22,934 nt of DNA. Origin: a virus. Taxonomy: Duplodnaviria; Heunggongvirae; Uroviricota; Caudoviricetes. Both the position numbers and the translations under genes were made by a program. The stretch lies in the IMG/VR virus record IMGVR_UViG_2693429523_000013. One strand, written 5' to 3'. The notes beneath the pieces are model-generated. The model was not told the DNA's origin, did not search any database, and worked only from the letters and a program-made list of their open reading frames with translations. Shown here one piece after another: positions 2,153-16,500 of this stretch. Numbering within the stretch: the first letter of the stretch is position 1; every line of letters begins with the position of its first letter.

Positions 2153-2246
2153 TTTCTGACCGTTATCCGTTCACCCGCAGCAGACGTAATCCCCGGCCTG
2201 CCGGCGGCATTCTGCTGCCTGTTATATCCCCGTGAGGAATATGAAA

Positions 2247-2849
2247 ATGAAACAACAGTATCAGACCCGCTACGAATGGCTCCACGAAAGCTACCAGAAA
2301 TGGCTGACCGGCTTCACCCGGCACGCCGTATCCTGGGGCGTGTGTCATCCGAATATCTACTACTTCCATAATCTGACGCCCGGTTGGGTGTCATTCAATG
2401 GTGAAAAACCGGAGATTGCCATCGTACCCCAGAGCCTGCACCGGCTGATTTATGGCCCTGACAAACGGGCCACGCCGCCCCTGGATGATGATCTGATTGT
2501 GAATTTATGCACCAGTGAACATCTGCTGGTTCATCATCCGATGCTGGAAGGCATTCTCCTGTCTGAATGTGAACGTCTGAGGCAGCGTTCTCTGGCAAAT
2601 AAACTGATCAGCCTCTTCCGTCAGTTTGGTGGCACGGAGTTGCGCCTCAAACTGGTCTGGCTTTGCTGGCTTGATTTAATGACCGGAAACAGCCTTGAAG
2701 ACTGGAAAGAGAACCTGAAACGGAAATCAGAAAAAGAGCTGGAGGAATGGATCATCAACCGTCAGAGGCAGAGCGCAGCACTGACGGATCTGATGGATCA
2801 GTACGTGCTCCTGGCATACCGCACAACGGTTGACGATAGCCGCAACTGA
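2247..2849 (+). CDS. hypothetical protein (200 aa), island-encoded
   Basis: Long ORF directly downstream of alpA; GAGGA at 2234-2238 is 8 nt before ATG 2247. No family recognised. Confidence 0.5.
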   Translation: MKQQYQTRYEWLHESYQKWLTGFTRHAVSWGVCHPNIYYFHNLTPGWVSFNGEKPEIAIVPQSLHRLIYGPDKRATPPLDDDLIVNLCTSEHLLVHHPMLEGILLSECERLRQRSLANKLISLFRQFGGTELRLKLVWLCWLDLMTGNSLEDWKENLKRKSEKELEEWIINRQRQSAALTDLMDQYVLLAYRTTVDDSRN

Positions 2850-4190
2850 TGCCGGTTGCTTCCGGAAGGTGTGACAAAATACGGAAATGATGATGCTCCC
2901 GGCCCCGCATGCTCACCTGCAGAGCGTGTTCGTCGTCATCATACTGAGCCATGACGGGCGTCTTAAGGGCATCCTGTCATTGCTGAGCAGGCAACACCAC
3001 CAGAGGAGCCACGGACAGGGATGTTCTTTACAGCCCGATACACGCCAGGTTCTCAGCAGACTGAATGTGCAGGTGCGGTTATTCACCAGAAATGGCATGC
3101 TGCGGTACATACCCATCCTGGTGACAATATGTACGTGGCGACAGCGATCCCGGCACTGTGGAAGAGACTCACTCAGCCTGCAGGATATTCTTTCCGGCAT
3201 CCGGGAATGTCCGCCTGAATGCAAACAGGATGATATTTGAATCCGTAATACTGTTCTTTCATCATAAATAATTTATGCAGATACAGTTAACCGTTACAGT
3301 AGCCGGTTTGTTTTACCGGGAAATAATATCCGTCAGACTGATGCCGGAACATATCTGAAACACGTTATGATGTTTTGTTATCAGAAATGTTGTATATTCT
3401 TATCCGTGGCGACAGTTTAATGCCCTCTGGTATCACCTTGGATTTGCCCCTATATTTACGGGACACGCCTCTTTTCATTGTGCTCCTTTTCAGACTTCAT
3501 TTTCCGTAAGTATTCCCCGGCATAAAGGAGGTACCTTTCTGGCGTTTATAACTCTCTTTATCGGTGACGCCGGTAATACAGGGAATACCACACCGACAAA
3601 CGAGGTATTAACAGACGATATTTCAGTGTCCATAATTTTTCTGTCCGGTTAAATAACGTCAGTCTGCTGCCCTCTGACTGTAATCATCAAAGCCGGAATG
3701 CATACCGGGTTACAACGTAAAAAAAGTGATGCTGGCCCCCGGTGCAGCTGGCGGGCGAAACATGTTTACCTTTCAATACCCCCTGTCTGCAGTCTCCACT
3801 CTTCCATCCTCTTAAGCTACGTCGGCCACATGAGTGCACTTCCATGATAACAGGTATTCCTGTCAGCATAACGAAGCAGGTTACCTTCCCTTCCTCCTGC
3901 ATTTCCTGTCAGAATGACTGTACAGCGCGCAGATTGCCTTTTTATTGACCACCTTAATATACCATTATAAACTTCTTTTTATCATGTTATTATCACCTTA
4001 TTATGTTTAATTTTTAAGCAACCGGAGAAAGAGGATGGTTCAGAAAATTTTGTCGGATAAGGTTATGAATGAAAGAACAAATGCGTATTACTCTTATTAT
4101 CTTGGAGAGCGTAATATCTCCGTACTACCCCTTAATGGTAACCGGCTCATTTAAACCGTCTGGTCTGTTTCCTCCGGCTCTACAAAAATA

Positions 4191-4868
4191 ATGTCCATCA
4201 TTTTTAATGGACACTATCGTATGAAACACCGGACCTGGATCACTGAAGCTTTACGTCTTCACTTTGAAGAACATTTACCCCGGGTTGTGGCCGGGCGTCG
4301 CCTGAGTGTACCAAAATCAACAGTTTGTAGTATGTTCGTGCGCTTTCGGAGAGCTGGCCTTTCGTGGCCTTTGCCCGCAGGCATGTCGGAGCAGGAACTT
4401 GATGCCTGCCTTTACGGACAATTTTCCACGGTACCAGTCGTACGTCCTGAAAGCACCGTTATATCCGAAGCCCCCGTGGTAAAAAAACGTCCCCGGCGGC
4501 CCAACTTCCCTTATGAGTTTAAAATCGCCTTAGTGGAGCAGTCACTACAGCCCGGAGCCTGTGTGGCGCAGATCGCCCGGGAAAACGGAATCAACGATAA
4601 CCTGCTCTTCAACTGGCGCCATCAATACCGGAAAGGTGGCCTGCTGCCTTCCGGAAAAAATATGCCGGCACTGCTTCCCGTGACGTTAACGCCGGAGCCG
4701 GATAATAAAATCCCGGCCCCCGCACAGGAACCAGAGCAGATAAATACACCGTCCGACAGTCTGTGTTGTGAGCTGGTTCTGCCGGCCGGAACTCTCAGGC
4801 TTAAAGGTAAACTGACGCCGGCGTTATTACAGACACTTATCCGCGAAATAAAAGGGAGCAGCCACTGA
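4191..4868 (+). CDS. tnpA: IS66-family accessory protein TnpA (orfA) with atypical N-terminal extension; start uncertain
   Basis: C-terminal part PRRPNFPYEFKIALVEQSLQPGACVAQIARENGINDNLLFNWRHQYRKGGL matches the IS66 TnpA HTH pattern. The first ~95 residues (..RRAGLSWPLPAGMSEQELDACLYGQ..) look like a separate transposase-type HTH. Confidence 0.65.
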   Translation: MSIIFNGHYRMKHRTWITEALRLHFEEHLPRVVAGRRLSVPKSTVCSMFVRFRRAGLSWPLPAGMSEQELDACLYGQFSTVPVVRPESTVISEAPVVKKRPRRPNFPYEFKIALVEQSLQPGACVAQIARENGINDNLLFNWRHQYRKGGLLPSGKNMPALLPVTLTPEPDNKIPAPAQEPEQINTPSDSLCCELVLPAGTLRLKGKLTPALLQTLIREIKGSSH

Positions 4869-5215
4869 TGATATCTCTCCCTGCAGGTTCGCGTATCTGG
4901 CTGGTTGCAGGTATCACCGATATGCGAAATGGCTTTAACGGCCTGGCATCAAAAGTTCAGAACGTCCTGAAGGATGACCCGTTCTCCGGACACCTGTTCA
5001 TCTTCCGCGGACGCCGGGGTGACCAGATAAAAGTGTTGTGGGCTGACAGTGACGGACTGTGCCTCTTCACCAAACGCCTGGAGCGGGGCCGCTTCGTCTG
5101 GCCAGTCACCCGTGACGGCAAGGTGCACCTTACTCCGGCTCAGTTATCCATGCTTCTTGAAGGTATCAACTGGAAGCACCCGAAACGAACGGAACGCGCT
5201 GGAATCCGCATATAA
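4868..5215 (+). CDS. tnpB: IS66-family TnpB (orf2), 115 aa
   Basis: MISLPAGSRIWLVAGITDMRNGFNGLASKVQ...GDQIKVLWADSDGLCLFTKRLERGRFVWP is the characteristic IS66 Orf2 sequence; start overlaps the tnpA stop. Confidence 0.9.
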   Translation: MISLPAGSRIWLVAGITDMRNGFNGLASKVQNVLKDDPFSGHLFIFRGRRGDQIKVLWADSDGLCLFTKRLERGRFVWPVTRDGKVHLTPAQLSMLLEGINWKHPKRTERAGIRI

Positions 5216-5234
5216 CCCGTTGTAAAGTGAGGAT

Positions 5235-6806
5235 ATGGACACCTCACTTGCTCATGAGAACGCCCGCCTGCGGGCACTGTTGCAGACGCAACAGGACACC
5301 ATCCGCCAGATGGCTGAATACAACCGCCTGCTCTCACAGCGGGTGGCGGCTTATGCTTCCGAAATCAACCGGCTGAAGGCGCTGGTTGCGAAACTGCAAC
5401 GTATGCAGTTCGGTAAAAGCTCAGAAAAACTTCGTGCAAAAACCGAACGGCAGATACAGGAAGCACAGGAGCGAATCAGCGCACTTCAGGAAGAAATGGC
5501 GGAAACGCTGGGTGAGCAATATGACCCGGTACTGCCATCCGCCCTGCGCCAGTCTTCAGCCCGTAAACCGTTACCGGCCTCACTTCCCCGTGAAACCCGG
5601 GTTATCCGGCCGGAAGAGGAATGCTGTCCTGCCTGTGGTGGTGAACTCAGTTCTCTGGGATGTGATGTGTCAGAGCAACTGGAGCTTATCAGCAGCGCCT
5701 TTAAGGTTATCGAAACACAACGTCCGAAACAGGCCTGTTGCCGGTGCGACCATATCGTGCAGGCACCAGTACCTTCAAAACCCATTGCACGCAGTTATGC
5801 CGGAGCGGGGCTTCTGGCCCATGTTGTCACCGGGAAATATGCAGACCATCTGCCGTTATACCGCCAGTCAGAAATATACCGTCGTCAGGGAGTGGAGCTG
5901 AGCCGTGCCACACTGGGGCGCTGGACAGGTGCTGTTGCTGAACTGCTGGAGCCGCTGTATGACGTCCTGCGCCAGTATGTGCTGATGCCCGGTAAAGTCC
6001 ATGCTGATGATATCCCCGTCCCGGTCCAGGAGCCGGGCAGCGGTAAAACCCGGACAGCCCGGCTGTGGGTCTACGTCCGTGATGACCGTAACGCCGGTTC
6101 ACAGATGCCCCCGGCGGTCTGGTTCGCGTACAGTCCGGACCGGAAAGGTATCCATCCACAAAATCACCTGGCCGGTTACAGCGGTGTGCTTCAGGCCGAT
6201 GCTTACGGTGGTTACCGGGCGTTATACGAATCCGGCAGAATAACGGAAGCCGCGTGTATGGCTCATGCCCGGAGAAAAATCCACGATGTGCATGCAAGAG
6301 CGCCCACCTACATCACCACGGAAGCCCTGCAGCGTATCGGTGAACTGTATGCCATCGAGGCAGAGGTCCGGGGCTGTTCAGCAGAACAGCGTCTGGCGGC
6401 AAGAAAAGCCAGAGCCGCGCCACTGATGCAGTCACTGTATGACTGGATACAGCAACAGATGAAAACACTGTCGCGTCACTCAGATACGGCAAAAGCGTTC
6501 GCATACCTGCTGAAACAGTGGGATGCACTGAACGTGTACTGCAGTAATGGCTGGGTGGAAATCGACAACAACATCGCAGAGAACGCCTTACGGGGAGTGG
6601 CCGTAGGCCGGAAAAACTGGATGTTCGCGGGTTCCGACAGCGGTGGTGAACATGCGGCGGTGTTGTACTCGCTGATCGGCACATGCCGTCTGAACAATGT
6701 GGAGCCAGAAAAGTGGCTGCGTTACGTCATTGAACATATCCAGGACTGGCCGGCAAACCGGGTACGCGATCTGTTGCCCTGGAAAGTTGATCTGAGCTCT
6801 CAGTAA
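5235..6806 (+). CDS. tnpC: IS66-family transposase TnpC (523 aa)
   Basis: N-terminal coiled-coil/leucine-zipper region, CxxC...CxxC zinc-finger motifs (CPACGG...CCRCDH) and a C-terminal DDE region typical of IS66 transposases; GAGG lies just upstream of ATG 5235. Confidence 0.9.
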
Positions 6807-6855
6807 ATATCAATACGGTTCTGACGAGTCGCTTACAAACAAAAGGCTGGTTAAC

Positions 6856-7077
6856 ATGAAAAAAATGGCAATTGTCGATAAAAAGGGTCTGGAGTACATT
6901 CCTAATATCGATCGTATGATCCGTGAGAAAGAATGTCGGGAGCTAACCACTCTTGCGAACAGCACACGCTGGAAGCTGGAGAAGGAAGGAAAATTTCCTA
7001 AGCGGATCAAGATTGGTTCCACTGCTGTTGCATATCGTCTTTCAGAAGTGCAGGCATGGATTAGGGGAGAGTGGTAA
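6856..7077 (+). CDS. AlpA-family HTH regulator (73 aa)
   Basis: ...ELTTLANSTRWKLEKEGKFPKRIKIGSTAVAYRLSEVQAWIRGE fits the AlpA/excisionase-like HTH pattern; begins 20 bp after the IS66 right end. Confidence 0.7.
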   Translation: MKKMAIVDKKGLEYIPNIDRMIREKECRELTTLANSTRWKLEKEGKFPKRIKIGSTAVAYRLSEVQAWIRGEW

Positions 7078-7128: not shown

Positions 7129-8478
7129 TCACTTAAATTCAAATACGTGCGTAGTTGATGAGATTATATAATTAGGTGGTAAGTATTGAACTATTTCTCC
7201 ATCTTCTTCAAAAATATGAATAACTCTTGGGAATAATTCAGGGTGTATAGGATTTAATGCCTTCGGATTATGAAACATGTATATTGCTGTACACCATGGT
7301 TCTTGATATGAAGGTGCATTGACAAGAGCAGTAAAAGGCATTGGGGTACAGCCTTCATCAGTTTTAATACCTCTAACGATGGATTTGACATTTTTTTGTT
7401 CAATCCCTGCCACTACTCCCATCCTATCAAATTTTGGGATGGTGGCATGTGTCGCAAGTAATATGGCTGAGACATTCTCATTTTTATTAGAGCCGAAAAA
7501 ATTAGATTGTATACTTCGATTTTCAAATAAATGTTGTTCAATTTTACTTCCAGAATCCATATCTACACCATACAGATAGCTTTGTAGTGCTGGCATTGAT
7601 ATACTCATCGAAAATCTGCGTGAGTAATCGTGTAAAGCAATAATGAAAGGCTTTCCTTTTGTATGATCTAGTTCCCAATAGCATAATTTTAAGGGTTCAG
7701 GTTTATGCCTAACTTTCTTTAATAGAGTGCGGGCAAATTTGAATGGCATTTGTTCTTTTACATATCTCTGAAGATCTTCTACTGCCTCATGATCAAGTAT
7801 CAATTTCTCGGTAGGTTCCTCTTGTTCTGCAACTGTGGCAGCTTCTACAGCAATATCAATGCCATTTTTTGAGATAATATAATCAGGTTGAGCATAATCT
7901 CTGCATATTACGAAATCCATTTCGTAGAAAACTGCGTTTAGATAAAGTTCGAATAAGCGAGAGTTAAATGAAGCACTCTGGAAATCTCTGATGAATATTC
8001 CATCAGGATCTTTACACCAATAAGCTAACTCTTGCATAACAATAAATGCAGGATAGTGTTTGGGTTCCTCAAGTAGCATTCTTAGATAAACGTTTTTTTT
8101 ATGTTCTGGAACTTTGGCTAGGAATATTGAAAATGCCGACTCTGATTCGTCACCCTGTATAAAACAACCGTTCTTGTGTAGTGATAATAGCTCTGGTATG
8201 GCTTTTTCCATATCAGTAATTAAATCATCTTTAGATTCACGGGATACAATTACTTTAATCGCTCTAAATTTTTTATCTAAATCCCTACCTAGAAATATAG
8301 CGTTGTAATCATTATCTATTTTACAAAAAACAATTGTTGCTAAGATCGTGACATCATCCTTTATAAATTTGAACCAACAGATTTCCTCCGAAAAGGTTTT
8401 TACGTATGGTGTACGACCATAGAAAAATACATCAAATTGTTCTTTACTGATTTCTAGCATTTTGTGACTTGTTGTCAT
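7129..8478 (-). CDS. hypothetical protein, 449 aa, AT-rich cargo gene of unknown function
   Basis: Uninterrupted 1350-nt minus-strand ORF; AAGGA is 7 nt upstream of the ATG (complement of 8476-8478). Visibly AT-rich compared with flanking DNA (by eye, not computed). No confident family assignment. Confidence 0.7.
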   Translation of the reverse strand: MTTSHKMLEISKEQFDVFFYGRTPYVKTFSEEICWFKFIKDDVTILATIVFCKIDNDYNAIFLGRDLDKKFRAIKVIVSRESKDDLITDMEKAIPELLSLHKNGCFIQGDESESAFSIFLAKVPEHKKNVYLRMLLEEPKHYPAFIVMQELAYWCKDPDGIFIRDFQSASFNSRLFELYLNAVFYEMDFVICRDYAQPDYIISKNGIDIAVEAATVAEQEEPTEKLILDHEAVEDLQRYVKEQMPFKFARTLLKKVRHKPEPLKLCYWELDHTKGKPFIIALHDYSRRFSMSISMPALQSYLYGVDMDSGSKIEQHLFENRSIQSNFFGSNKNENVSAILLATHATIPKFDRMGVVAGIEQKNVKSIVRGIKTDEGCTPMPFTALVNAPSYQEPWCTAIYMFHNPKALNPIHPELFPRVIHIFEEDGEIVQYLPPNYIISSTTHVFEFK

Positions 8479-8501
8479 AGAAGAATCCTTTATGCAAATT
8501 A

Positions 8502-8696
8502 TCAGCCTTTAGGTGTTATTCCTTGTTTTATTAGTTCGGCACGAGCCAGTTCTTTTAGCCAGTTACCTAAGCTCATCCCTTCTTTGGCAGCGACATTAAC
8601 CATTTGTTCTTTTAATTCTGGGTTAATACGGACTTGGAATGCTGGTGCTTTACCTGCACCTTTCGGTTGTTTATCACGTTGAATGATAGTTGACAT
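8502..8696 (-). CDS. ribbon-helix-helix (Arc/CopG-like) DNA-binding protein, 64 aa; likely regulator of the downstream 449-aa gene
   Basis: ..FQVRINPELKEQMVNVAAKEGMSLGNWLKELARAEL.. matches the beta-strand/helix/helix pattern of Arc-type repressors. Its stop is 23 nt upstream of the 449-aa gene start on the same strand. Confidence 0.6.
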   Translation of the reverse strand: MSTIIQRDKQPKGAGKAPAFQVRINPELKEQMVNVAAKEGMSLGNWLKELARAELIKQGITPKG

Positions 8697-8738
8697 GTGT
8701 GTACCTATTGCTTAGTATGATTCTTGATAGGTACACAC
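8697..8738. promoter_or_regulatory. 12-bp perfect inverted repeat (GTGTGTACCTAT-N18-ATAGGTACACAC) directly upstream of the RHH gene; candidate operator or translational hairpin
   Basis: Arms at 8697-8708 and 8727-8738 are exact reverse complements. On the minus strand, the arm adjacent to the start codon contains the only SD-like sequence (AGGT) for the RHH gene. Confidence 0.4.
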
Positions 8739-8835
8739 CTTATCATGTTTTATTGCTATATAACAACGCCCTGCAGTGCTCGCAACACATACAGGGCGTC
8801 TAACCACCAACGATAGCAACAGTATCGAGGTAGCT

Positions 8836-9039
8836 ATGAGAAATCATACCACACACCCGCAAGGGCGGGATTCGCACAACCTGAATAAATACATCTGGCG
8901 TTTTATCGCCCTGAGCACCGCACAACCACGCGTAATACACATCGAGGCCGCCAGCGAACAGGAAGCCCGCCAGCAATCCCCAACTGGCTACGTGATGATA
9001 TTCGCCGCCCGTATTCGTCAGGAGGTGTGCCGTGCTTAA
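8836..9039 (+). CDS. hypothetical small protein (67 aa), first gene of the divergent plus-strand operon
   Basis: GAGG at 8827-8830 precedes ATG 8836. The track ORF from 8776 is longer but lacks an RBS. No family recognised. Confidence 0.35.
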   Translation: MRNHTTHPQGRDSHNLNKYIWRFIALSTAQPRVIHIEAASEQEARQQSPTGYVMIFAARIRQEVCRA

Positions 9040-9217
9040 AACCTTCCGTGTATTTGCCCGAGCTGTTAACCCACTGGGCCACACAATTGGTATCACTCAG
9101 AACGTGAAGGCTGTTAATGTTCAGACGGCTATTGCTGCGGTGAGAAGCGAATCATCAGAATATGGCTTATCACAAGTCATTATTTCAGCAGTGTATGAAT
9201 TAAAAGAGGTGCATTAA
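9032..9217 (+). CDS. hypothetical small protein (61 aa)
   Basis: GTG start at 9032 with GGAGG at 9021-9025 (6-nt spacing); overlaps the previous stop, suggesting translational coupling. Confidence 0.4.
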   Translation: MLKTFRVFARAVNPLGHTIGITQNVKAVNVQTAIAAVRSESSEYGLSQVIISAVYELKEVH

Positions 9218-9408
9218 TGAAGGAAATTACATTACACGAAGCCGCTGAACGTGCGCACCAGACAGAAATTATTTGCCGCCTTCTTGAGGTATACCCGAAC
9301 AAAATTACAGATGCTGATATATCCGCGCTGGCGAGCCTACTGGCGCGCCTTTCGGGAAGTGTCGCTAGTTTCCTGATTGAGGAAGAAAGTAAGCTGGTGG
9401 GGGATTAA
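9217..9408 (+). CDS. hypothetical small protein (63 aa)
   Basis: ATG overlaps the upstream stop (TAATG); AGAGG lies upstream. Confidence 0.45.
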   Translation: MKEITLHEAAERAHQTEIICRLLEVYPNKITDADISALASLLARLSGSVASFLIEEESKLVGD

Positions 9409-9630
9409 ATGAATACAGAACGGGAAGTCTTTTTTAAATTGTTAGCATGTGCAGAAAGTTCATTAACTTTAAATAATTCAGCAAAAGCAATATTAAATAT
9501 GTGGCTTGATTGCATAAATGACAATGAAGATGCAAATATTGCTTATGGCCTGTTGTCACTTATTGATGAATCAGCAGAAAAACTCAATGACGCAATAAAT
9601 AGTGCCCTGCTATCAAATAAGTCGAGTTAA
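9409..9630 (+). CDS. hypothetical small protein (73 aa), AT-rich
   Basis: Start immediately follows the previous stop and is preceded by a G-rich SD-like stretch. Confidence 0.45.
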   Translation: MNTEREVFFKLLACAESSLTLNNSAKAILNMWLDCINDNEDANIAYGLLSLIDESAEKLNDAINSALLSNKSS

Positions 9631-9647
9631 GTCGAGGAATAAATAAT

Positions 9648-9947
9648 ATGGAAATGAAAAATTCTGGCTTTATTGCCAGCGGCCCCGCTCGGCCTGAATT
9701 TATGAACGGCGATATTTACCGCGATAAATACGGCGGCACGGTAACGATTAAAGGCGTGGCAGAACGGCGCATCACTTACCGCCGTGAGGGGTATAGCTAT
9801 GACTGCGTGATGCCTGTTTATCAGTTCCGGCGTGATTTTTCCCTGGTATATGCCGCACCCCGCAGTAAGCCCATCAGCAGGGAAAAAGCGCGGGGAAACA
9901 TCCAGAAAATGAAAAGCATGATTAACGCATTCAGGGGCAAAAAATGA
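9648..9947 (+). CDS. hypothetical protein (99 aa)
   Basis: GAGGAA precedes the ATG; the stop overlaps the primase start (ATGA). Confidence 0.5.
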   Translation: MEMKNSGFIASGPARPEFMNGDIYRDKYGGTVTIKGVAERRITYRREGYSYDCVMPVYQFRRDFSLVYAAPRSKPISREKARGNIQKMKSMINAFRGKK

Positions 9948-11695
9948 AACTGGCACCGAACTTAAAAAAACAGCCACGCGACAGACTGACAGAGGTAATC
10001 ATCTTTGCAGGTAGTGATGCGTGGAGCCATGCGAAAGAGTGGCGGGAATGGGCGGGTAAACATATTGCCGCCGACGATGTGCCGCCTGTCGTGCTGGCTG
10101 ATGAGCAACTGAAAAATATCACCGATTACCGGATCATTGATGAAGATCGTCAGTGTGTGCGTGTTTACCGCGCAGGACATATCACAGAGCACAGCATGAC
10201 GCAGATTGTTACGTTACTGGCTGTGGCTGGAGTGAAGACCGTACACGAATACGCGGGGATTACTGACACCAGCCCAGTGGATTTATCCGAGCAGTTGCCG
10301 CGACTCAAAGAGGAATGCGAGCGTGGGGAAAGTCTGGTGCTTAATCTTCCGACGAAGCAAAAGGCGCAACTTTCACAGATGGCAGACAGTGAACGTGCAC
10401 AACTACTTGCCGATCGCTTTGATGGTGTGTGTGTTCATGCAGAAAGTGAAATCGTCCACGTATGGCGCGGCGGGGTATGGTGTCCGGTCAGCACAATGGA
10501 GCTGAGCCGCGAAATGGTGGCGATCTATTCAGAGCACAGGGCCACGTTCAGCAAACGTGTAATCAATAACGCCGTGGAAGCGTTAAAAGTTATTGCCGAC
10601 CCCATGGGGGAGCCGTCCGGTGATTTGCTACCGTTCACTAATGGTGTGCTTAACCTGAAAACGGGGGAATTTTCTCCGCACTCGCCGGAGCACTGGAGCA
10701 CCACGCACAATGGCATTGAGTACACGCCACCAGTAGCAGGGGAAAACATCCGCGATAATGCGCCAAATTTCCATAAATGGCTTGAACATGCTGCAAGAAA
10801 AGACCCGCGTAAGATGATGCGTATATGTGCCGCGTTATACATGATTATGGCGAACCGCTACGACTGGCAGATGTTCATTGAGGCCACCGGAGACGGGGGA
10901 AGCGGTAAGAGTACATTTACCCATATTGCCACCCTGCTTGCTGGCAAACAGAACACCGTAAGCGCGGAGATGACATCACTCGATGATGCAGGAGGGCGCG
11001 CGCAGGTTGTCGGGAGTCGTCTTATCGTCCTTGCCGATCAGCCGAAATATACGGGGGAAGGCACGGGCATCAAGAAAATCACGGGAGGCGATCCCGTTGA
11101 AATTAACCCGAAATATGAGAAGCGATTCACGACGATAATAAGGGCGGTGGTACTGGCAACCAATAACGACCCGATGATCTTTACCGAACGGGCCGGAGGT
11201 GTGTCACGCCGTCGGGTGATTTTCCGGTTCGACAACATTGTAAGGGAGGACGAAAAAGACAAGGAATTACCGGAAAAGATAGCGGCAGAAATCCCCGTAA
11301 TTATCCGCCGCTTGCTGGCTAATTTTGCTGCCCCTGAAAAGGCACGGGCTTTATTACTGGAACAGCGTGACGGTGATGAAGCTCTGGCAATAAAGCAGCA
11401 AACGGATCCGGTTGTTGAGCTTTGCGCGGCGCTGGAGTTTCTGGAGGAAGCTCGTGGGCTAATGATGGGCGGTGGTGGTGACACCGTGAAGTACACGACC
11501 AGAAACAGCCTTTACCGTGTCTATATGGCCTTCATGGCATACACAGGAAAGGGGAAATGTTTGAGCGTGAATGAGTTCGGAAAGGCTATGAGGTCAGCGG
11601 CGAAAGTTTACGGATATGAATATATTACGCGAAAAGTTAAGGGAGTCACGCAGACCAACGCAACGACTACTGATGATTGCGATGCGTTTTTATAA
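9944..11695 (+). CDS. phage/plasmid primase-helicase, P4-alpha C-terminal type (D5_N-like plus SF3 NTPase), 583 aa
   Basis: Walker A GDGGSGKST and Walker B-like RLIVLADQP; overall architecture is that of P4-family / PICI replication proteins as recalled. An iteron array lies directly downstream. Confidence 0.85.
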   Translation: MKLAPNLKKQPRDRLTEVIIFAGSDAWSHAKEWREWAGKHIAADDVPPVVLADEQLKNITDYRIIDEDRQCVRVYRAGHITEHSMTQIVTLLAVAGVKTVHEYAGITDTSPVDLSEQLPRLKEECERGESLVLNLPTKQKAQLSQMADSERAQLLADRFDGVCVHAESEIVHVWRGGVWCPVSTMELSREMVAIYSEHRATFSKRVINNAVEALKVIADPMGEPSGDLLPFTNGVLNLKTGEFSPHSPEHWSTTHNGIEYTPPVAGENIRDNAPNFHKWLEHAARKDPRKMMRICAALYMIMANRYDWQMFIEATGDGGSGKSTFTHIATLLAGKQNTVSAEMTSLDDAGGRAQVVGSRLIVLADQPKYTGEGTGIKKITGGDPVEINPKYEKRFTTIIRAVVLATNNDPMIFTERAGGVSRRRVIFRFDNIVREDEKDKELPEKIAAEIPVIIRRLLANFAAPEKARALLLEQRDGDEALAIKQQTDPVVELCAALEFLEEARGLMMGGGGDTVKYTTRNSLYRVYMAFMAYTGKGKCLSVNEFGKAMRSAAKVYGYEYITRKVKGVTQTNATTTDDCDAFL

Positions 11696-11711
11696 AAAAT
11701 GGCAATGGTTA

Positions 11712-11934
11712 TCTACCTTGTCTACCTGACTGAAAGAAAATACTTTTATTTCAATGTATTAATGCAGGTAGATAACTATTTTTCACTGTCTACCTGTTAT
11801 CTACCTTATCTACCCATTTTTGTAGACAGGTAAGGAGACGGGTAGAGATGAGGTAGACAGCTATTTGGGGCTGTCTACCTCCCTGAAACCCGCGCCATTA
11901 CTGGCCTGATAACTAATCAGGTAGACAAGGTAGA
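11712..11934. repeat. iteron array; candidate replication origin of the satellite-like module
   Basis: About 12 copies of the hexamer TCTACC / GGTAGA in both orientations (TCTACC at 11712, 11721, 11789, 11800, 11809, 11874; GGTAGA at 11767, 11841, 11852, 11920, 11929, plus a partial copy at 11822). An AT-rich spacer sits at 11731-11766, immediately 3' of the primase gene. Confidence 0.6.
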
Positions 11935-11984
11935 CAAGGTGGTGGTGCACAAAAAACTTTTTAAACGAGGGGGTAAAAATAAAA

Positions 11985-12242
11985 ATGCACACATCAGGAA
12001 AACTGAACAAACATATAAAGCCACATTACCGCGCCCTTGATATGGCTGAACACTGGCTAAGGGTGGCGATTAAGGCAATAGACCGCAACGCCGGGGAAGG
12101 ATACGCGAAAGCACATCCCGAACTGATAAGCGCATTCATGACAACGGCGGCTGCAAACTTTGCCACGCTGACCGAACGGGAGATTGCTGAAGCGGAGGAA
12201 GTGACAACAATCAATATTAAGTCCGGAGAGCAGGCAGCATGA
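11985..12242 (+). CDS. hypothetical protein (85 aa)
   Basis: GAGGGGG lies upstream of the ATG; the stop overlaps the ssb start (ATGA). Confidence 0.5.
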   Translation: MHTSGKLNKHIKPHYRALDMAEHWLRVAIKAIDRNAGEGYAKAHPELISAFMTTAAANFATLTEREIAEAEEVTTINIKSGEQAA

Positions 12243-12688
12243 CGGCGCAAATATCAGTTTACGGGCGGTTGGTGGACGACCCGCAGACAAAACAGACCAG
12301 CAAGGGCACCCCCATGACGCTGGCGCGTATGGCGGTATCACTGCCCTGCAGTCAGTCGGATGACGGTCTGGCGACGTTGTGGTTATCTGTCCTGGCGTTT
12401 GGCAGACAAGCCGACGCGCTGGCAAAGCATCACAAAGGCGAACTCCTGAGCGTGGCGGGTAACATGCAGATGAGCCAGTGGACTGGACAGAACGGCGAAA
12501 CGCGGCAGGGCTGGCAGGTTATCGCAGACAGCGTAATCAGTGCGCGATCGGTGCGACCGGGCGGCAAAAAAGGCCAACAGGGGCAGGCTACTGACGCACT
12601 GAACAGAGCAAAACAACAGGCAGATCAGCAAGGAAGCCAGCCACCAGAGGGAGATAATGAGCAATGGGGAGATGATATCCCGTTTTAA
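12239..12688 (+). CDS. ssb: single-stranded DNA-binding protein (149 aa)
   Basis: OB-fold region aligns by eye with E. coli SSB (ISVYGRLVDDPQ.., WLSVLAFGRQAD, GELLSVAGNMQMSQWTGQNGE..); Gly/Gln-rich linker; acidic C-terminal tip ...WGDDIPF matches the SSB DDDIPF tail. Confidence 0.85.
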   Translation: MTAQISVYGRLVDDPQTKQTSKGTPMTLARMAVSLPCSQSDDGLATLWLSVLAFGRQADALAKHHKGELLSVAGNMQMSQWTGQNGETRQGWQVIADSVISARSVRPGGKKGQQGQATDALNRAKQQADQQGSQPPEGDNEQWGDDIPF

Positions 12689-12904
12689 ATATTGCCAATA
12701 AAAAAAGCCGGAAAAAATAAATTTTCCGGCATGCTACATAAATCCCGACCAAAGGGAGTGAAGATATTAACACTAATTGTCCGCACTGAAGTTGTCACCC
12801 CAAAACTTTATACAACATTGCACTCGGTTGCATGTGTTCGCATGACAAATATCGGTGATAGCATATATCCACAATTATTTTTAATGAATGCAAAGAGGAT
12901 GCGT

Positions 12905-13945
12905 ATGGTTGATTTATATTCGCCTACCCAGCTTGTACAGGTGGTTAATGCTGTAGATGTACAAAAACAACTAAATGCGTTGTTTACCAGTTTGTTTTTT
13001 ACTCGCTCGGTAATGTTTGGATCGCGCGATATTATTCTTGATACAATCGACGATCCAAATATCCCAATTGCAGCGTTTTGTTCTCCTATGGTGGGTAGTA
13101 AAGTTTCACGTGACGAAGGGTACGAATCAAAAACAATTCGTCCAGGCTATATGAAGCCGAAAAGCAGCATTGATCCAAATAAGTTAGCTGTGCGCCCTGC
13201 TGGTGTATCACCTGAGCAATACAATGCTTTTGGGGCGCGTAATATTAAAGTTAAACAGGCGATTGTAAATCAAGCTAAAGCTATTCGTGCACGTATTGAA
13301 TGGCTTGCCGTTCAGGCAATCACAACGGGGAAAAATATCATTGAGGGCGATGGTATTGAACGTTATGAGCTGGACTGGAATATTAAACCACAAAATATCA
13401 TCACTCAGTCTGGCGGTACTGAGTGGTCAGGTAAGGATAAAGAAACTTTTGATCCAAATGATGATATTGAGAGCTACGCAGAATTTAGTGAGGGCGTCAC
13501 TAATATCATCATTATGGGCGGTAATGTATGGAAGAAATACCGTTCATTCAGAGCGATAAAAGAGGCTCTGGATACCCGTCGTGGTTCTAATTCCGAACTG
13601 GAAACGGCCCTTAAAGACCTTGGTGATTCGGTGAGTTTTAAAGGATATATGGGCGATGTTGCGATTGTTGTTTACAGCGGGCGTTATACCGACGAGGACG
13701 GAACTGAAAAACATTTCCTTGATCCTGATTTGATGGTGCTTGGCAATACGGCTCTTCAGGGGATTGTCGCCTATGGCGGTATTCAGGATCCGGAGCTAAT
13801 CCGAATGGGGCTGACTAAAGCCGAACTTGCACCGAAAAACTATATTGTGCCTGGTGATCCGGCTATTGAATATGTGCAGACACATTCAGCACCACAGCCA
13901 ATACCGGCCCGCATCAATCGTTTTGTTACCGTTCGCATTGGCTAA
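12905..13945 (+). CDS. major capsid protein, lambda gpE family (346 aa), divergent from lambda
   Basis: Aligns by eye along its length with lambda gpE (PGYMKPK.., NIITQSGGTEWSGKDK.., DTRRGSNSELETA identical, C-terminal ..GDPA.E...QSAP..). AGAGGA is 5 nt before ATG 12905; the track ORF start at 12692 adds 71 residues with no homology. Confidence 0.8.
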   Translation: MVDLYSPTQLVQVVNAVDVQKQLNALFTSLFFTRSVMFGSRDIILDTIDDPNIPIAAFCSPMVGSKVSRDEGYESKTIRPGYMKPKSSIDPNKLAVRPAGVSPEQYNAFGARNIKVKQAIVNQAKAIRARIEWLAVQAITTGKNIIEGDGIERYELDWNIKPQNIITQSGGTEWSGKDKETFDPNDDIESYAEFSEGVTNIIIMGGNVWKKYRSFRAIKEALDTRRGSNSELETALKDLGDSVSFKGYMGDVAIVVYSGRYTDEDGTEKHFLDPDLMVLGNTALQGIVAYGGIQDPELIRMGLTKAELAPKNYIVPGDPAIEYVQTHSAPQPIPARINRFVTVRIG

Positions 13946-13954
13946 GGGGGAGCA

Positions 13955-14296
13955 ATGGCTACTCATTACACTGAACTCATGGCTGGCACTGAAGCACTGG
14001 TGACTACGCTGGGGATATTTTCAGCTAATAAAGGGGTAATTCCTGCATTTACGCCACTGATGCAGGAAGATGCAACAGGTGCACTGGTGGTATGGGATGG
14101 TTCGAGCGTAGGTAAAGCGGTTTATGTTTCCGCTGTACAAATCGACACCGCGAAAAAAACACAGGCTCAGGTCTATAAGACAGGTGTCTTAAATGTTGAT
14201 GCTCTGAACTGGCCTGAGTCTGTAAAAGAACTGTCAGTAAAGATTGCAGCGTTTGTTGGCTCAGGTATTTCTGTTCAGCCGCTGGCTCGTGTGTAA
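13955..14296 (+). CDS. head decoration protein, lambda gpD-like (113 aa)
   Basis: ..TPLMQEDATGALVVWDGSSVGKAVYVSAVQ...YKTGVLNVDALNWPE...AAFVGSGISVQPL parallels lambda gpD (..TPLM...KLVAWDG...YKSGTF..VLWPE..AFAGTAISIV) as recalled. AAGGGGGA RBS present. Confidence 0.7.
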   Translation: MATHYTELMAGTEALVTTLGIFSANKGVIPAFTPLMQEDATGALVVWDGSSVGKAVYVSAVQIDTAKKTQAQVYKTGVLNVDALNWPESVKELSVKIAAFVGSGISVQPLARV

Positions 14297-14307
14297 AGGG
14301 GGATACA

Positions 14308-14691
14308 ATGCAAAATGATTACAATGACCTTAAGCCAATTGCCGAAATGATGTACCCGAATCCAGCTGTAGAGGAATTAAAAGCTATCGCTGACAAAATG
14401 TGTTTAAGCGAGCGCCTTGTTGATATGAATCAGGTGATGGAAATTACAACCCTGAGTCGGCGTACACTGCTAAACCTTGAGGCTAGTGGAGAGTTCCCGG
14501 AGCGTGTGCAGGTTACGGAAGGGCGTAAGGCCTGGTATTTAAGTGAAGTGATCGACTGGATAAATAATATTCCTCGCGCTTCTGAATATTGCCGCGTACC
14601 TGTCCCAAAAAAGCCAGATGCGGCGCTATGCCTCAAGATTGAGCGTGTACGCCGCAATGCACGGGATGGTCGCTATAAGCTGATTGGTTGA
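14308..14691 (+). CDS. AlpA-type HTH domain protein with ~40-aa N-terminal extension (127 aa)
   Basis: Residues ~40-90 (MNQVMEITTLSRRTLLNLEASGEFPERVQVTEGRKAWYLSEVIDWI) fit the AlpA HTH pattern; AAGGGGGA RBS before ATG 14308. Confidence 0.6.
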   Translation: MQNDYNDLKPIAEMMYPNPAVEELKAIADKMCLSERLVDMNQVMEITTLSRRTLLNLEASGEFPERVQVTEGRKAWYLSEVIDWINNIPRASEYCRVPVPKKPDAALCLKIERVRRNARDGRYKLIG

Positions 14692-14744
14692 TGAAATTAG
14701 GGCCCGCTCTGGCTGGCGGGTCCTTTCCGGCGATCTGACAGGCT

Positions 14745-14912
14745 ACGGGGCGTCAGGCGCGCGGATTTTCGCTATTTATGAAAATTTTCCGGTTTAAGGC
14801 GTTTCCGTTCTTCTTCGTCGTAACTTAATGTTTTTATTTAAAATACCCCCTGAAAAGAAAGGAAACGACAGGTGCTGAAAGCGAGCTTTTTGGCCTCTGT
14901 CGTTTCCTTTCT
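14745..14912 (+). promoter_or_regulatory. lambda-type cos region: cosN-like site (~14745-14762) and cosB with three CGTTTCC-core R elements
   Basis: 14760-14936 reads almost exactly as the recalled lambda left-end/cosB sequence upstream of Nu1. R3 is at 14791-14797, inverted R2 at 14861-14867 and R1 at 14901-14907; R2/R1 lie in a 16-bp perfect inverted repeat (14856-14871 / 14897-14912). The 12-mer at 14748-14759 is GGGCGTCAGGCG rather than the recalled lambda GGGCGGCGACCT. Confidence 0.7.
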
Positions 14913-14936
14913 CTGTTTTTGTCCGTGGAATGAACA

Positions 14937-15488
14937 ATGGAAGTCAACAAAAAGCAGCTGGCTGACATTTTCGGTGCGAGTATCCGTACCATTCAGAACT
15001 GGCAGGAACAGGGAATGCCCGTTCTGCGAGGCGGTGGCAAGGGTAATGAGGTGCTTTATGACTCTGCCGCCGTTATAAGATGGTATGCCGAAAGGGATGC
15101 TGAAATTGAGAACGAAAAGCTGCGCCGGGAAGTTGAAGAACTGCGGCAGGCCAGCGAGACAGATCTCCAGCCAGGGACTATTGAGTACGAACGCCATCGA
15201 CTTACGCGTGCGCAGGCCGACGCACAGGAACTGAAGAATGCCAGCGAAACAGGTGAGGTAATTGACACTGCATTTGCGACTTATGCCTTGTCGAAATTAA
15301 CTGGGGAAGTTGGAGCAATCATTGATAGTCTTCCACTTGCGATCTGTCGACAGTTTCCTGGCATGGAAAAACGGTATCAGGACTTCATTAAGATGGAGGT
15401 CAGTAAAGCATTTATTCGAGCTTACCAGATCTCAGATAACATTCCAGATATGGCTGAAAGGTATATCAAGGATAATCAGCGAAGTTAA
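14937..15488 (+). CDS. Nu1: terminase small subunit Nu1, chimeric: lambda-type N-terminal DNA-binding domain with a divergent C-terminal domain
   Basis: First ~100 residues (MEVNKKQLADIFGASIRTIQNWQEQGMPVLRGGGKGNEVLYDSAAVI.WYAERDAEIENEKLRREVEELRQASE.DLQPGTIEYERHRLTRAQADAQELKNA) match lambda gpNu1 as recalled; the C-terminal ~80 residues are similar in length but clearly different. Confidence 0.9.
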   Translation: MEVNKKQLADIFGASIRTIQNWQEQGMPVLRGGGKGNEVLYDSAAVIRWYAERDAEIENEKLRREVEELRQASETDLQPGTIEYERHRLTRAQADAQELKNASETGEVIDTAFATYALSKLTGEVGAIIDSLPLAICRQFPGMEKRYQDFIKMEVSKAFIRAYQISDNIPDMAERYIKDNQRS

Positions 15489-15594: not shown

Positions 15595-16500
15595 TTAAGG
15601 TAGTGGTACTATGGATATTTTTCTGTCGTTCCCAAATGAACTTTTAAATAATTTCGCTCTTGGATACATTTTAACTAGTGATGCGACTTCATCGAACTCG
15701 CTGGCATCAAAAAGAGGACCAAGTATTACAGATTTTAACTCAAAAGGGTGAAATTTTAAGTCGCTATATTGACCAGTGCTATTTGGCCTAGCGTAGGTTG
15801 AAATTCTCCACTCTCTTTCATATGCCCATTCTTCTGTTTTTATGAATATTATCTCATTATTGATATATTCAATTGACTTATTGTCTGGCATGAAAAGCAA
15901 CTCGGCCATCCCTTCAGCAGTGTGAGTTAGAGGCATTTCATCTGTGTATTTCATAGGTTTGGCTATTAACCAAGCGCTATCCAGAAAGTCTACACAATCA
16001 AATTCGATAACTATACCTTTATATTTATCGGCATAGTGATTCCACATAGGAGTGATTATAGGGCTCTCAGATAAACACAAAATCCTTCTGTTATTAAGCA
16101 TTCCTCGCCAGACATCTTTCATTTCTTGTATTGCCGCAGGAGCGCCAATCCCAACTGGTGGAATGTTTACCATTTCTTGAAATCTTTCAATTAATCCTGC
16201 GGGTATGCCTAAAGGAAATGACTTTTGGAAATCACTTAGCATTGTTCTAATTCTAGGGTTTAAATTTTGTATGTCTTCTCTGGGGGTAATCAACTCCGCT
16301 ATTAACTTGCGGGCTAAAGCTTTGCCAATATTAATTTCGTTAATACCAGGCATAACTTCTCTTGGAACATCAAAAGGGTCATTAAATAGGACCGGAGAAC
16401 TCCATCTAAGGCTGCATGAATCAAGAACAATCTTCGCGGTATTCAACGACATATACTTATAAAATGTTGAGCGTTCATGCATTCTGTTGGGTGAGCGCAT
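15595..16500 (-). CDS. DUF2971-like protein (301 aa), AT-rich moron
   Basis: N-terminal ..STFYKYMSLNTAKIVLDSCSLRWSSPVLFNDPFDV.. matches the recalled DUF2971 signature (YKY.S...L...lw.S.p..FNDPFD). AGAGGA is 4 nt upstream of the ATG (complement of 16498-16500). AT-rich by eye. Confidence 0.7.
   Translation of the reverse strand: MRSPNRMHERSTFYKYMSLNTAKIVLDSCSLRWSSPVLFNDPFDVPREVMPGINEINIGKALARKLIAELITPREDIQNLNPRIRTMLSDFQKSFPLGIPAGLIERFQEMVNIPPVGIGAPAAIQEMKDVWRGMLNNRRILCLSESPIITPMWNHYADKYKGIVIEFDCVDFLDSAWLIAKPMKYTDEMPLTHTAEGMAELLFMPDNKSIEYINNEIIFIKTEEWAYEREWRISTYARPNSTGQYSDLKFHPFELKSVILGPLFDASEFDEVASLVKMYPRAKLFKSSFGNDRKISIVPLP

Follow-up and report, generated by a model that had tools for sequence, protein, structure and literature searches.

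Five small genes between a predicted control region and a P4-type primase form the front of a satellite early operon in Escherichia coli

Positions 8836-9947 of the DNA analysed here (a 22,934-nucleotide viral stretch, IMG/VR record IMGVR_UViG_2693429523_000013, referred to throughout as the window) open the early/replication operon of an E. coli phage satellite whose kind is known, the helper-embedded PICI. Five plus-strand ORFs of 67, 61, 63, 73 and 99 aa are followed by a P4-type primase, and all five are confirmed as real genes. On profile evidence the first of them is a homologue of P4 Kil and P1 Icd, and the fifth belongs to DUF4222. The layout parallels the left operon of P4, with a candidate protein repressor replacing C4/CI RNA immunity.

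Results

The five genes are coding and closely packed

The genes of the region and the primase that follows them are listed below.

8836-9039, plus strand: ORF1, ATG start, 67 aa, pI 10.3
9032-9217, plus strand: ORF2, GTG start, 61 aa, pI 9.4
9217-9408, plus strand: ORF3, 63 aa, acidic, pI 4.8
9409-9630, plus strand: ORF4, 73 aa, acidic, pI 4.2
9648-9947, plus strand: ORF5, 99 aa, pI 10.2, net charge +11.5
9944-11695, plus strand: primase/helicase, 583 aa

ORF1 and ORF2 overlap by 8 nt (GTGCTTAA), ORF2 and ORF3 by 1 nt (TAATG), ORF3 and ORF4 abut (TAAATG), ORF4 and ORF5 are separated by a 17-nt gap, and ORF5 overlaps the primase gene by 4 nt (ATGA). The sequence-only reading of this DNA had described just such a series of small, same-strand, overlapping or abutting ORFs leading into a primase, with a GTG start at 9032 and TAATG and ATGA junctions, and its description of the layout is borne out.

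A Shine-Dalgarno/anti-Shine-Dalgarno duplex of -5.7 to -11.6 kcal/mol, at a spacing of 3-9 nt, precedes all six starts, against a window-wide mean of -2.9; this is stronger than expected by chance. Pairwise dN/dS between homologues at 75-97% nucleotide identity is 0.05-0.61 for ORF1, ORF2, ORF3 and ORF5 (0.15-0.58 for ORF1, 0.08-0.32 for ORF2 and 0.05-0.35 for ORF3), and for ORF4 I found no diverged full-length homologue from which to make the estimate. Each ORF matches a PHROG family of its own (E 1e-28 to 1e-45), and gene callers report the same five genes in independent assemblies. The earlier reading had made its case depend on conservation in related elements, and the ORFs are indeed kept in related satellites, the ORF4 family in 10 of 12 loci, with frames and overlaps preserved across diverged loci. 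A longer form of ORF1 starting at GTG-8776 was rejected, as it lacks a Shine-Dalgarno match and conservation upstream of ORF1 is RNA-like, not codon-like.

The element is a helper-embedded PICI that has lost its integrase

That the ORFs belong to the early operon of a phage satellite had also been proposed from the letters alone, and this stands: small genes coupled by overlaps run into a satellite primase, and AlpA, iterons, SSB and packaging genes are all present. AlpA lies at 6856-7077, and alpA, the primase (with the candidate origin behind it) and the late packaging zone share one orientation. The primase carries D5_N, DUF5906 and a P4-family primase C-terminal region, with 41% identity to P4 alpha over residues 137-578. 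Directly behind it comes the remainder of the replication module.

11704..11940, no strand assigned: iteron array, candidate replication origin, with at least 10 copies of TGTCTACCT / AGGTAGACA
11985..12688, plus strand: 85-aa ORF (phrog_1231) overlapping the SSB gene by ATGA

The late zone encodes a capsid E-like protein (Phage_cap_E), a gpD-like decoration protein (HDPD), an AlpA-like protein and a Nu1-like TerS. In relatives the major capsid gene of a lambdoid prophage is interrupted by the satellite, and the element matches the 11capE / E:Phage_cap_E:80 type of PMC10111431. The right half of the split capsid gene is at 16649-17425 (Phage_cap_E profile positions 94-328), whereas the left half is absent from the window and present in three related loci (L001, L002 and L016). 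The tyrosine integrase that the helper-embedded PICI clade has at the left end is also missing: homology to intact relatives begins at 6836, directly after an IS66 element and about 19 nt short of the end of int, and int is present in the intact relatives L002 and L016. The window copy has thus lost its integrase to IS66 and, since it also lacks the left part of the helper, its operon may no longer be induced naturally.

With 11capE elements and Gram-negative PICIs such as EcCICFT073 (PMC10111431, PMC6092414) the element shares alpA, the accessory/Bro zone, primase and SSB in a replication zone, captured capsid genes in a late zone and insertion in the lambdoid capsid gene E, and differs in the loss of int. 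In those reports the small ORFs are hypothetical families and the activator is AlpA; the divergent ribbon-helix-helix gene, the palindrome and the leader hairpin that stand before the Icd-like gene here are not described.

Sequence related to some part of 8400-10100 was found by megablast in 1810 of 5426 complete E. coli genomes; the contig scan that used the primase as query returned only 3 loci. Across 12 loci compared, the order is family A (Icd-like), then F-E or D/G cassettes, then family C (that of ORF4), family B (DUF4222) and a replicase of D5_N, RepA or DUF927 type, with iterons after the replicase. ORF2 and ORF3 are thus a swappable cassette, whereas the ORF4 family and DUF4222 stay beside the replicase whichever type it is.

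A predicted control region precedes ORF1

The promoter, operator and Rho site described here are predictions made at the level of sequence pattern.

8502..8696, minus strand: divergent 64-aa ribbon-helix-helix (Arc/HicB/YlcI-like) gene, candidate operon repressor
8690..8718, plus strand: sigma-70-like promoter, TTGACA-17 nt-TAGTAT, matching 10 of 12 consensus positions
8697..8738, no strand assigned: perfect 12-nt inverted repeat GTGTGTACCTAT / ATAGGTACACAC, candidate operator, centred on the -10 hexamer
8766..8799, plus strand: leader hairpin, then a C-rich tail CTAACCACCAACG, in the minimum-free-energy fold and conserved

The divergent gene gives weak Pfam matches to HicB and Arc and matches the Arc-like repressor family phrog_228 (E 1.2e-5), and a small divergent ribbon-helix-helix or YlcI/YnfO gene occupies the same position in nine of the E. 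coli loci examined. RefSeq labels it as part of a HicAB toxin-antitoxin pair, a label that I reject since only its ribbon-helix-helix tail matches HicB (20.3 bits, below the cut-off of 21) and no HicA accompanies it: I found no HicA toxin gene adjacent and no HicA-sized frame in the ORF list. Its only neighbour is PD-T7-1, which the satellite carries.

The start codon of the divergent gene overlaps the -35 hexamer, of which TTGA is invariant in 8 of 8 aligned loci and the full TTGACA is present in six of them, despite differing flanks. Where the palindrome lies in the window, other loci have different repeated motifs, which change with the type of repressor. The leader hairpin pairs in 91.7% of cells across 12 loci, and three of its eight pairs change on both sides; its covariation score is 0.265 against 0.08 in shuffles, none of 500 of which reaches 0.265, and controls slid along the alignment stay at or below 0.085. 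It matches no Rfam family. No C4/CI or isrK immunity RNA was found upstream of ORF1 or elsewhere in the window, whether the gathering score or E up to 10 was applied; the same RNA search recovered both C4 and isrK in P4 and in a Morganella relative. For the predicted Rho site, across 8760-8960, the C/G ratio is 1.2-1.9, close to or above the 90th percentile of the window (1.41) in 6 of 11 sliding windows.

ORF1 belongs to the Icd-like family

The predicted promoter and leader are followed first by ORF1. It matches the Icd-like family NF033153 with 70.9 bits against a cut-off of 25 (E 6.5e-20). P4 Kil, which I take to be 65 aa long (a translated P4 terminal ORF of 65 codons agrees with that length), matches the same model (76.1 bits, E 1.6e-21), and an HMM built from relatives of ORF1 matches P4 Kil at E 4.4e-15. 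The core of the AF2 model of ORF1 is beta-beta-alpha-beta (pLDDT about 86). ORF1 and ORF2 both look beta-beta-alpha-beta by eye, and I considered whether they are paralogues, an idea that the hhalign probability of 0.2% disposes of. A sequence search of the PDB with ORF1, ORF2 and ORF5 returned no match. It had been said from the sequence that none of the five resembles a known protein, which is wrong for ORF1 (NF033153, Icd-like) and for ORF5 (DUF4222, PF13973).

ORF2 to ORF5

ORF2 matches phrog_3672 (1.6e-45); its family is narrow, confined to E. coli and forming 13 clusters among 5.8 billion proteins, and the exact protein is indexed in 4022 blocks of an assembly collection. ORF3 matches phrog_1478 (2.5e-34) and has homologues at 59% identity within early operons of Klebsiella temperate phages. 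ORF4 matches phrog_2196 (1e-28), and its family lies directly 5' of DUF4222 in 10 of the 12 loci; a search of representatives clustered at 50% identity found only its own cluster, plus repeat-protein noise. The PHROG families of ORF2-4 are catalogued with no function assigned.

ORF5 covers the full 53-position model of DUF4222 (PF13973; E 9e-24, 83.2 bits against a gathering score of 27) and is modelled as a basic Tudor/SH3-like barrel. A tblastn search with ORF5 of 50,697 phage records gave no match.

Pfam and NCBIfam hold no family for three of the five ORFs, none of the five matches a PADLOC defence model, and none is similar to any annotated antirepressor. No homology was found between ORF2-5 and P4 epsilon, orf151 or orf106; a single hint of a relationship joins ORF5 to the N-terminus of orf151, with 31% identity over 48 aa, at an E of 0.02 in a six-protein database and with no Pfam support.

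Comparison with P4, P1 and SaPIs

In the P4 left operon (vis, eta/kil with the CI RNA, epsilon, orf151, orf106, alpha), as in the window, small overlapping genes lead into a P4-family primase, the two primases being 41% identical over their C-terminal 440 aa, and the first translated ORF is an Icd-like protein (65-67 aa in the two systems) the 3' end of which supplies the Shine-Dalgarno sequence of the next gene and overlaps that gene by 8 nt. At its kil/epsilon junction P4 reads GGAGGTGTCCCGTGCGTAA, nearly identical to AGGAGGTGTGCCGTGCTTAA in the window, where AGGAGG precedes the overlap with ORF2, although the downstream gene differs. There are also differences. P4 has the C4/CI and isrK RNA where the window has a divergent ribbon-helix-helix gene and a palindrome; the window lacks epsilon/Derepression, orf151 and DUF5375, and its downstream small genes are unrelated to those of P4; and its late genes are lambda-type capsid, decoration and Nu1 genes, not sid, psu and delta. 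As ORF1-5 contain no match to the P4 Derepression family (PF25738) or to DUF5375 and the late genes differ from sid/delta/psu, I rejected classification of the element as a P4-like satellite. A passage on P4 in PMC10111431, which summarises Forti 1999, states that Kil functions in cell killing and that translation of eta prevents termination.

In the P1 immI operon (c4 RNA, icd, ant1/ant2) an Icd-family ORF is likewise the first cistron. There icd blocks division reversibly and is needed for ant expression, its translation being required for the genes behind it (PMC8201110). Unlike the window, with its apparent protein repressor and its unrelated small proteins followed by a primase, immI is under antisense RNA control and has an antirepressor downstream. 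The Stl/Str region of SaPIs and Gram-positive PICIs resembles the window in that a repressor is divergent from an operon with replication genes (PMC6092414), but has no sequence relationship to it. Gram-negative PICIs are reported to rely on AlpA and not on a master repressor (PMC6092414).

A six-gene module that looks the same arrests growth in ECOR61

In the E. coli strain ECOR61, orf24 of a T7-like phage triggers growth arrest, and Tn5 suppressors of the orf24-triggered death fell in a 366-nt Icd-like gene and in two hypothetical genes, 186 and 192 nt long, the overlaps being 8 nt and 1 nt (bioRxiv 10.1101/2023.04.06.535777). Reconstitution needed all six linked genes, a primase among them, and gave an effect described as muted, which removal of the Icd-like gene abolished; an analogous P4 operon in ECOR15 responds to P22 Abc1 (bioRxiv 10.1101/2023.04.06.535777). 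ORF2 and ORF3 agree with the two hypothetical genes in length (186 and 192 nt), in their 8-nt and 1-nt overlaps and in their place beside an Icd-like gene. An array of 121, 61, 63, 73, 99 and 583 aa occurs in three of the loci (L025, L029 and L035), in which ORF2, ORF4 and ORF5 are 100% and ORF3 98.4% identical to the window at the nucleotide level. Judged by annotation, gene lengths and overlaps, the ECOR61 module looks the same as that of the window, with two differences: its head gene encodes 121 aa against 67 aa here, and the regulator in the loci with this array is of YlcI/YnfO type. The 121-aa protein has an Icd-like domain, and its N-terminal half bears a weak resemblance to a further copy. 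Because transposon insertions can be polar, the part of ORF2 and ORF3 in the death of ECOR61 may be indirect. No other functional data seem to bear on this module, and what they suggest is that a T7-like phage protein sets off growth arrest or death.

Discussion

What do these small genes do for the satellite? The explanation that I prefer as a whole, and consider somewhat probable, is that the region is the promoter-proximal part of a helper-embedded PICI early/replication operon that works as follows. The ribbon-helix-helix protein would keep the promoter repressed until activation of the satellite. As with kil/eta in P4 and icd in P1, everything downstream would be gated by translation of the first ORF, both because the genes are translationally coupled and because Rho would be prevented from terminating transcription in the C-rich, G-poor stretch. 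The ORF1 protein would arrest division or kill when over-produced, ORF2 and ORF3 may act with it in a growth-arrest response to phage proteins, and ORF4 and the basic, Tudor-like DUF4222 protein would be accessory factors of the replication module.

A possible but less likely account makes ORF1-3, perhaps with ORF4, ORF5 and the primase, a dedicated abortive-infection module, in which a sensor and an effector kill or arrest the cell on meeting a foreign phage protein. The ECOR61 results speak for it (arrest by orf24, suppressors in the Icd-like and the 61- and 63-aa genes, a requirement for six genes), as do the response of the ECOR15 P4 operon to P22 Abc1 and the presence of PD-T7-1 already next door in the satellite. 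However, none of the five ORFs matches a PADLOC model, the reconstituted effect is muted, and the toxicity could simply follow from activation of the satellite at the wrong time, because uncontrolled PICI replication is itself toxic (PMC6092414). Thousands of satellites keep the genes at this place before the replicase, which favours a role in the life cycle first.

I hold it tentatively, and as rather doubtful, that ORF4 and DUF4222 help the replicase, for example in origin recognition, loading or recruitment of the host polymerase, with ORF1-3 as regulatory baggage.

Distinctly improbable, to my mind, is that ORF2-4 are small inhibitors that bind proteins of the helper (its repressor, packaging or capsid proteins, for example), as P4 epsilon does, and so induce or sabotage it. 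ORF2 does sit in the slot of P4 epsilon, directly after a Kil homologue and with the same junction sequence, both ORF3 (pI 4.8) and ORF4 (pI 4.2) encode small acidic proteins, elements exchange cassettes in the way that arms-race genes would be exchanged, and ORF3 has relatives in the early operons of Klebsiella temperate phages. But similarity to the P4 Derepression family (PF25738) or to an annotated antirepressor is lacking, and helper-embedded PICIs reside within their helper and do not excise until the composite has undergone induction and replication (PMC10111431), so that the helper would seem to need no derepression. The element's own capsid, decoration and TerS genes are a more plausible means of interfering with lambdoid helpers.

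Hardly credible is the view that the primase mRNA has a long 5' leader in which some or all of these ORFs are open by chance. They are indeed short, three lack a Pfam/NCBIfam family, and at 50% identity ORF4 meets no cluster but its own. Yet dN/dS lies well under 1, each start has a Shine-Dalgarno sequence, the PHROG matches are specific, frames and overlaps are preserved and the same five genes are called in independent assemblies.

Beyond the mechanism that I prefer, one may speculate, at little better than a long shot, that the Icd-like/Kil ORF with its conserved 3' junction is a universal docking point for interchangeable sensor cassettes (ORF2 and ORF3, the D/G families, P4 epsilon), each acting with the Icd-like effector to sense a different phage protein and bring about growth arrest or satellite activation, here under a ribbon-helix-helix repressor and a structured leader and not under C4/CI antisense RNA. 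Were this so, the replication operon would contain a modular switch triggered by proteins.

No system of a new kind is seen in the window, which is largely ordinary because the satellite kind, the Kil/Icd homologue and DUF4222 were known and what is apparently the same six-gene module has already been reported. Its value lies in a clean comparative picture: an Icd-like head is followed by swappable cassettes, the ORF4 family, DUF4222 and a replicase, and RNA immunity gives way to a putative protein repressor. The small genes rank with the commonest uncharacterised satellite genes of E. coli, about one third of complete genomes having related sequence, and they are located where the satellite decides to switch on. 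The roles of ORF2-5 would explain how Gram-negative PICIs sense phages, how they start replication and why their activation is toxic.

Five coupled genes and a primase

The sequence-only reading described five small ORFs with overlapping or abutting start and stop codons leading into the primase. That description is correct in its positions and junctions, and it agrees with the Shine-Dalgarno (SD) sequences at all starts, with dN/dS and with gene calls in independent assemblies, where the same five genes appear.

Genes of the operon and the adjoining repeat array (window coordinates)
8836-9039, +, ORF1, ATG start, 67 aa, Icd-like (NF033153)
9032-9217, +, ORF2, GTG start, 61 aa
9217-9408, +, ORF3, 63 aa
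9409-9630, +, ORF4, 73 aa
9648-9947, +, ORF5, 99 aa, DUF4222
9944-11695, +, P4-type primase, 583 aa, directly after ORF5
11704-11940, both orientations, iteron array with at least 10 copies of TGTCTACCT/AGGTAGACA, between the primase and an 85-aa ORF

From ORF1 to the primase, the junctions are GTGCTTAA, TAATG, TAAATG, a 17-nt gap and ATGA. SD/anti-SD duplexes of -5.7 to -11.6 kcal/mol lie at normal spacing before all six starts, against a window-wide mean of -2.9. GTG 8776, considered as an alternative start for ORF1, is without such a duplex. Compared with homologues at 75-97% nucleotide identity, ORF1, ORF2, ORF3 and ORF5 give dN/dS values of 0.05-0.61, rates that point to purifying selection on the ORFs. 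ORF4 is the least supported of the five because it has no diverged full-length copy for a rate estimate; it matches phrog_2196 at 1e-28, and its family occupies the same slot at 10 of the 12 loci compared.

Conservation of the architecture

The twelve loci share one order: an Icd-like gene, one to four small overlapping cassettes (the ORF2 and ORF3 pair, or members of two other families), the ORF4 family, DUF4222 and a replicase. The replicase itself varies between a D5_N primase, a RepA-type helicase and a DUF927 protein, which have only an N-terminal region of ~140 aa in common with the window primase, and the ATGA overlap between DUF4222 and the replicase is retained with every type. In comparison with two of the relatives (L008 and L009), this N-terminal region (9944-10360) corresponds to phrog_2850, has no Pfam family and directly follows DUF4222, with which it may work. 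Farther relatives, from Serratia, Morganella and a 16.5-kb capsid-forming island deposited as a phage, keep the frame from Icd-like gene to primase and have no DUF4222.

PICI origins are reported to lie downstream of the primase, and the iteron array is a probable replication origin. A replication-accessory role, which would be a partial alternative to an early/replication operon and compatible with it, seems to me possible but doubtful.

ORF1 is a relative of P4 Kil. In P4, kil (65 aa) is read from the terminal 65 codons of what was formerly annotated as the "cI ORF"; this frame scores 76.1 bits against the Icd-like model and is matched at 4.4e-15 by an HMM of ORF1 relatives. The PHROG label "transcriptional repressor" on ORF1 is thus inherited from the P4 cI annotation. 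The AF2 model of ORF1 has a beta-beta-alpha-beta core (pLDDT about 86), for which structure comparison gave no informative neighbour. ORF2 is basic, and its family comprises only 13 clusters among 5.8 billion proteins, all from E. coli. ORF3 and ORF4 are both small and acidic, and relatives of ORF3 at 59% identity occur in early operons of Klebsiella temperate phages. PADLOC models matched none of ORF1-ORF5, and a PDB sequence search with ORF1, ORF2 and ORF5 returned no match.

The control region

Features upstream of ORF1
8502-8696, -, divergent ribbon-helix-helix (RHH) gene, 64 aa, start codon overlapping the -35 hexamer
8690-8718, +, candidate promoter, TTGACA-17-TAGTAT pattern
8697-8708 and 8727-8738, perfect 12-nt palindrome centred on the -10 hexamer, candidate operator
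8766-8799 (with tail to 8812), +, leader hairpin, conserved tail CTAACCACCAACG after the stem

TTGA of the -35 hexamer is invariant in all eight aligned loci, six of which have the full TTGACA. The repeats around it differ by locus and track the type of divergent regulator, HicB/Arc-like or YlcI/YnfO. Since the RHH gene has no HicA partner, its RefSeq label "HicB antitoxin" is probably misleading; together with the palindrome on the -10 hexamer, this divergent gene suggests that this PICI lineage has a protein as its master repressor. In the RefSeq records of two relatives (L002 and L008), the minus-strand RHH-like frame is unannotated and overlapped by a doubtful plus-strand ORF.

Across the twelve loci, 91.7% of cells in the leader hairpin pair, three of its eight pairs have changed on both sides, and it scores 0.265 for covariation, compared with 0.08 in shuffles and values near zero in slid controls; a search of Rfam gave no match. 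The SD of ORF1 lies inside a second possible hairpin (ATAGC...GCTAT). P4 and P1 relatives have a C4/CI RNA target at the position of the window's hairpin. In P4 and the Morganella relative, isrK and C4 RNAs lie just upstream of the Icd-like frame, so one chassis seems to occur under two kinds of control, RNA immunity or a protein repressor. The leader and ORF1 are rich in C and poor in G (roughly half of the 60-nt windows lie near or beyond the 90th percentile of the whole window), a composition compatible with a Rho-loading site, though not proof of one.

The P4 left operon (vis, eta/kil, epsilon, orf151, orf106, alpha) has 8-nt overlaps, and its kil/epsilon junction, GGAGGTGTCCCGTGCGTAA, can be set against AGGAGGTGTGCCGTGCTTAA at ORF1/ORF2. 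Other loci retain the same SD and start position before unrelated downstream genes. Accordingly, the Icd-like gene seems to end in a conserved coupling adaptor, with the cassettes after it being exchanged. In P4, Kil has a cell-killing function and eta translation prevents termination (Forti 1999 as summarised in PMC10111431), while in P1, icd is needed for ant expression and blocks division reversibly (PMC8201110). By homology and position, ORF1 may have a similar gating role.

A damaged satellite

Features of the satellite and its surroundings
about 4138-6835, IS66-family element, three ORFs at 4191-6806, directly abutting the satellite
7129-8478, -, 449-aa gene between alpA and the RHH gene, full-length match to PD-T7-1 (PADLOC E 1e-153)
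12692-15488, lambda-E-like major capsid gene, gpD-like decoration gene, second AlpA-like regulator (14308-14691) and Nu1-type small terminase
15595-16500, -, right end of the satellite, DUF2971 protein matching candidate defence family PDC-S31 (PADLOC E 2.5e-32)
16649-17425, right half of the interrupted capsid gene

Many E. coli chromosomes carry ~11 kb islands to which the window is 98% identical from 6836 on; these islands interrupt a lambdoid prophage in its major capsid gene. Their gene order is int, an AlpA-type regulator, variable cargo, the Icd-like-to-primase block, a small ORF, SSB and late genes (the island's own capsid-E-like and gpD-like genes, a second AlpA-like gene and a Nu1-type small terminase). 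The element is a helper-embedded PICI of the 11capE type (site E:Phage_cap_E:80), described by Tommasini, Mageeney, Williams 2023 (PMC10111431). The satellite thus has its own major capsid gene while interrupting that of its helper.

In the window this satellite is damaged: its homology with intact relatives starts at about the last 19 nt of int, and the IS66 element bridges the satellite and an unrelated island (1-4137) that is 100% identical to an island of E. coli HS-like strains. As the IS66 junction falls within the end of int, this copy is without int, attL and the left half of the helper prophage, and is probably immobile. An undamaged twin, the metagenomic locus L016, carries the same cargo, PD-T7-1 included; the match to PD-T7-1 gives the satellite an anti-phage defence gene in its accessory zone.

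The ECOR61 growth-arrest module

Silas et al. (bioRxiv 10.1101/2023.04.06.535777) reported that E. coli ECOR61 stops growing in response to orf24, an accessory gene from a T7-like phage. Tn5 insertions that suppress this effect fell, on a single contig, in a 366-nt Icd-like gene and in two hypothetical genes (186 and 192 nt). Their coordinates imply overlaps of 8 nt and 1 nt; the lengths and overlaps of the 186- and 192-nt genes exactly equal those of ORF2 and ORF3. Reconstitution of a muted effect needed all six linked genes, primase included, and was abolished by removal of the Icd-like gene (bioRxiv 10.1101/2023.04.06.535777). The form annotated there has a 121-aa head, whereas that of the window has 67 aa. 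At loci with a 121-61-63-73-99-583 aa array, ORF2, ORF4 and ORF5 are 100% and ORF3 98.4% identical to the window in nucleotide sequence. The 121-aa gene (L029 1143-1508, also L035 and L025) contains an Icd-like domain after a first half with a weak match to the family model (13.6 bits), and may be a diverged tandem duplication. Judged by annotation, gene lengths and overlaps, the ECOR61 module is very probably equivalent to the window operon.

In ECOR15, the P4 left operon mediates death in response to P22 Abc1 (bioRxiv 10.1101/2023.04.06.535777). An abortive-infection role for the window operon, again partial and not exclusive of an early/replication operon, is about as doubtful as a replication-accessory one.

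Interpretation

The sequence-only reading proposed helper derepression or interference, which is improbable: ORF2 does occupy the slot of P4 epsilon, but the idea has no sequence support and fits poorly with a satellite that sits inside its helper and excises only after helper induction.

Catalogues already contain this type of element, the Icd-like family, DUF4222 and the PHROG families; thousands of assemblies encode identical proteins, and a module that appears to be the same one has already been studied experimentally. I found no description in the literature of the RHH/palindrome/hairpin control region or the junction adaptor; these are variations within a known system.

The best-supported reading is that 8836-9947 and the primase form an early/replication operon. 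The divergent RHH protein would repress it, and the Kil/Icd-type ORF at its head would serve as both gate and effector. ORF2 and ORF3 would be a swappable accessory pair, probably needed for phage-triggered arrest, and ORF4 and DUF4222 would be the final two cassettes, travelling with the replicase.
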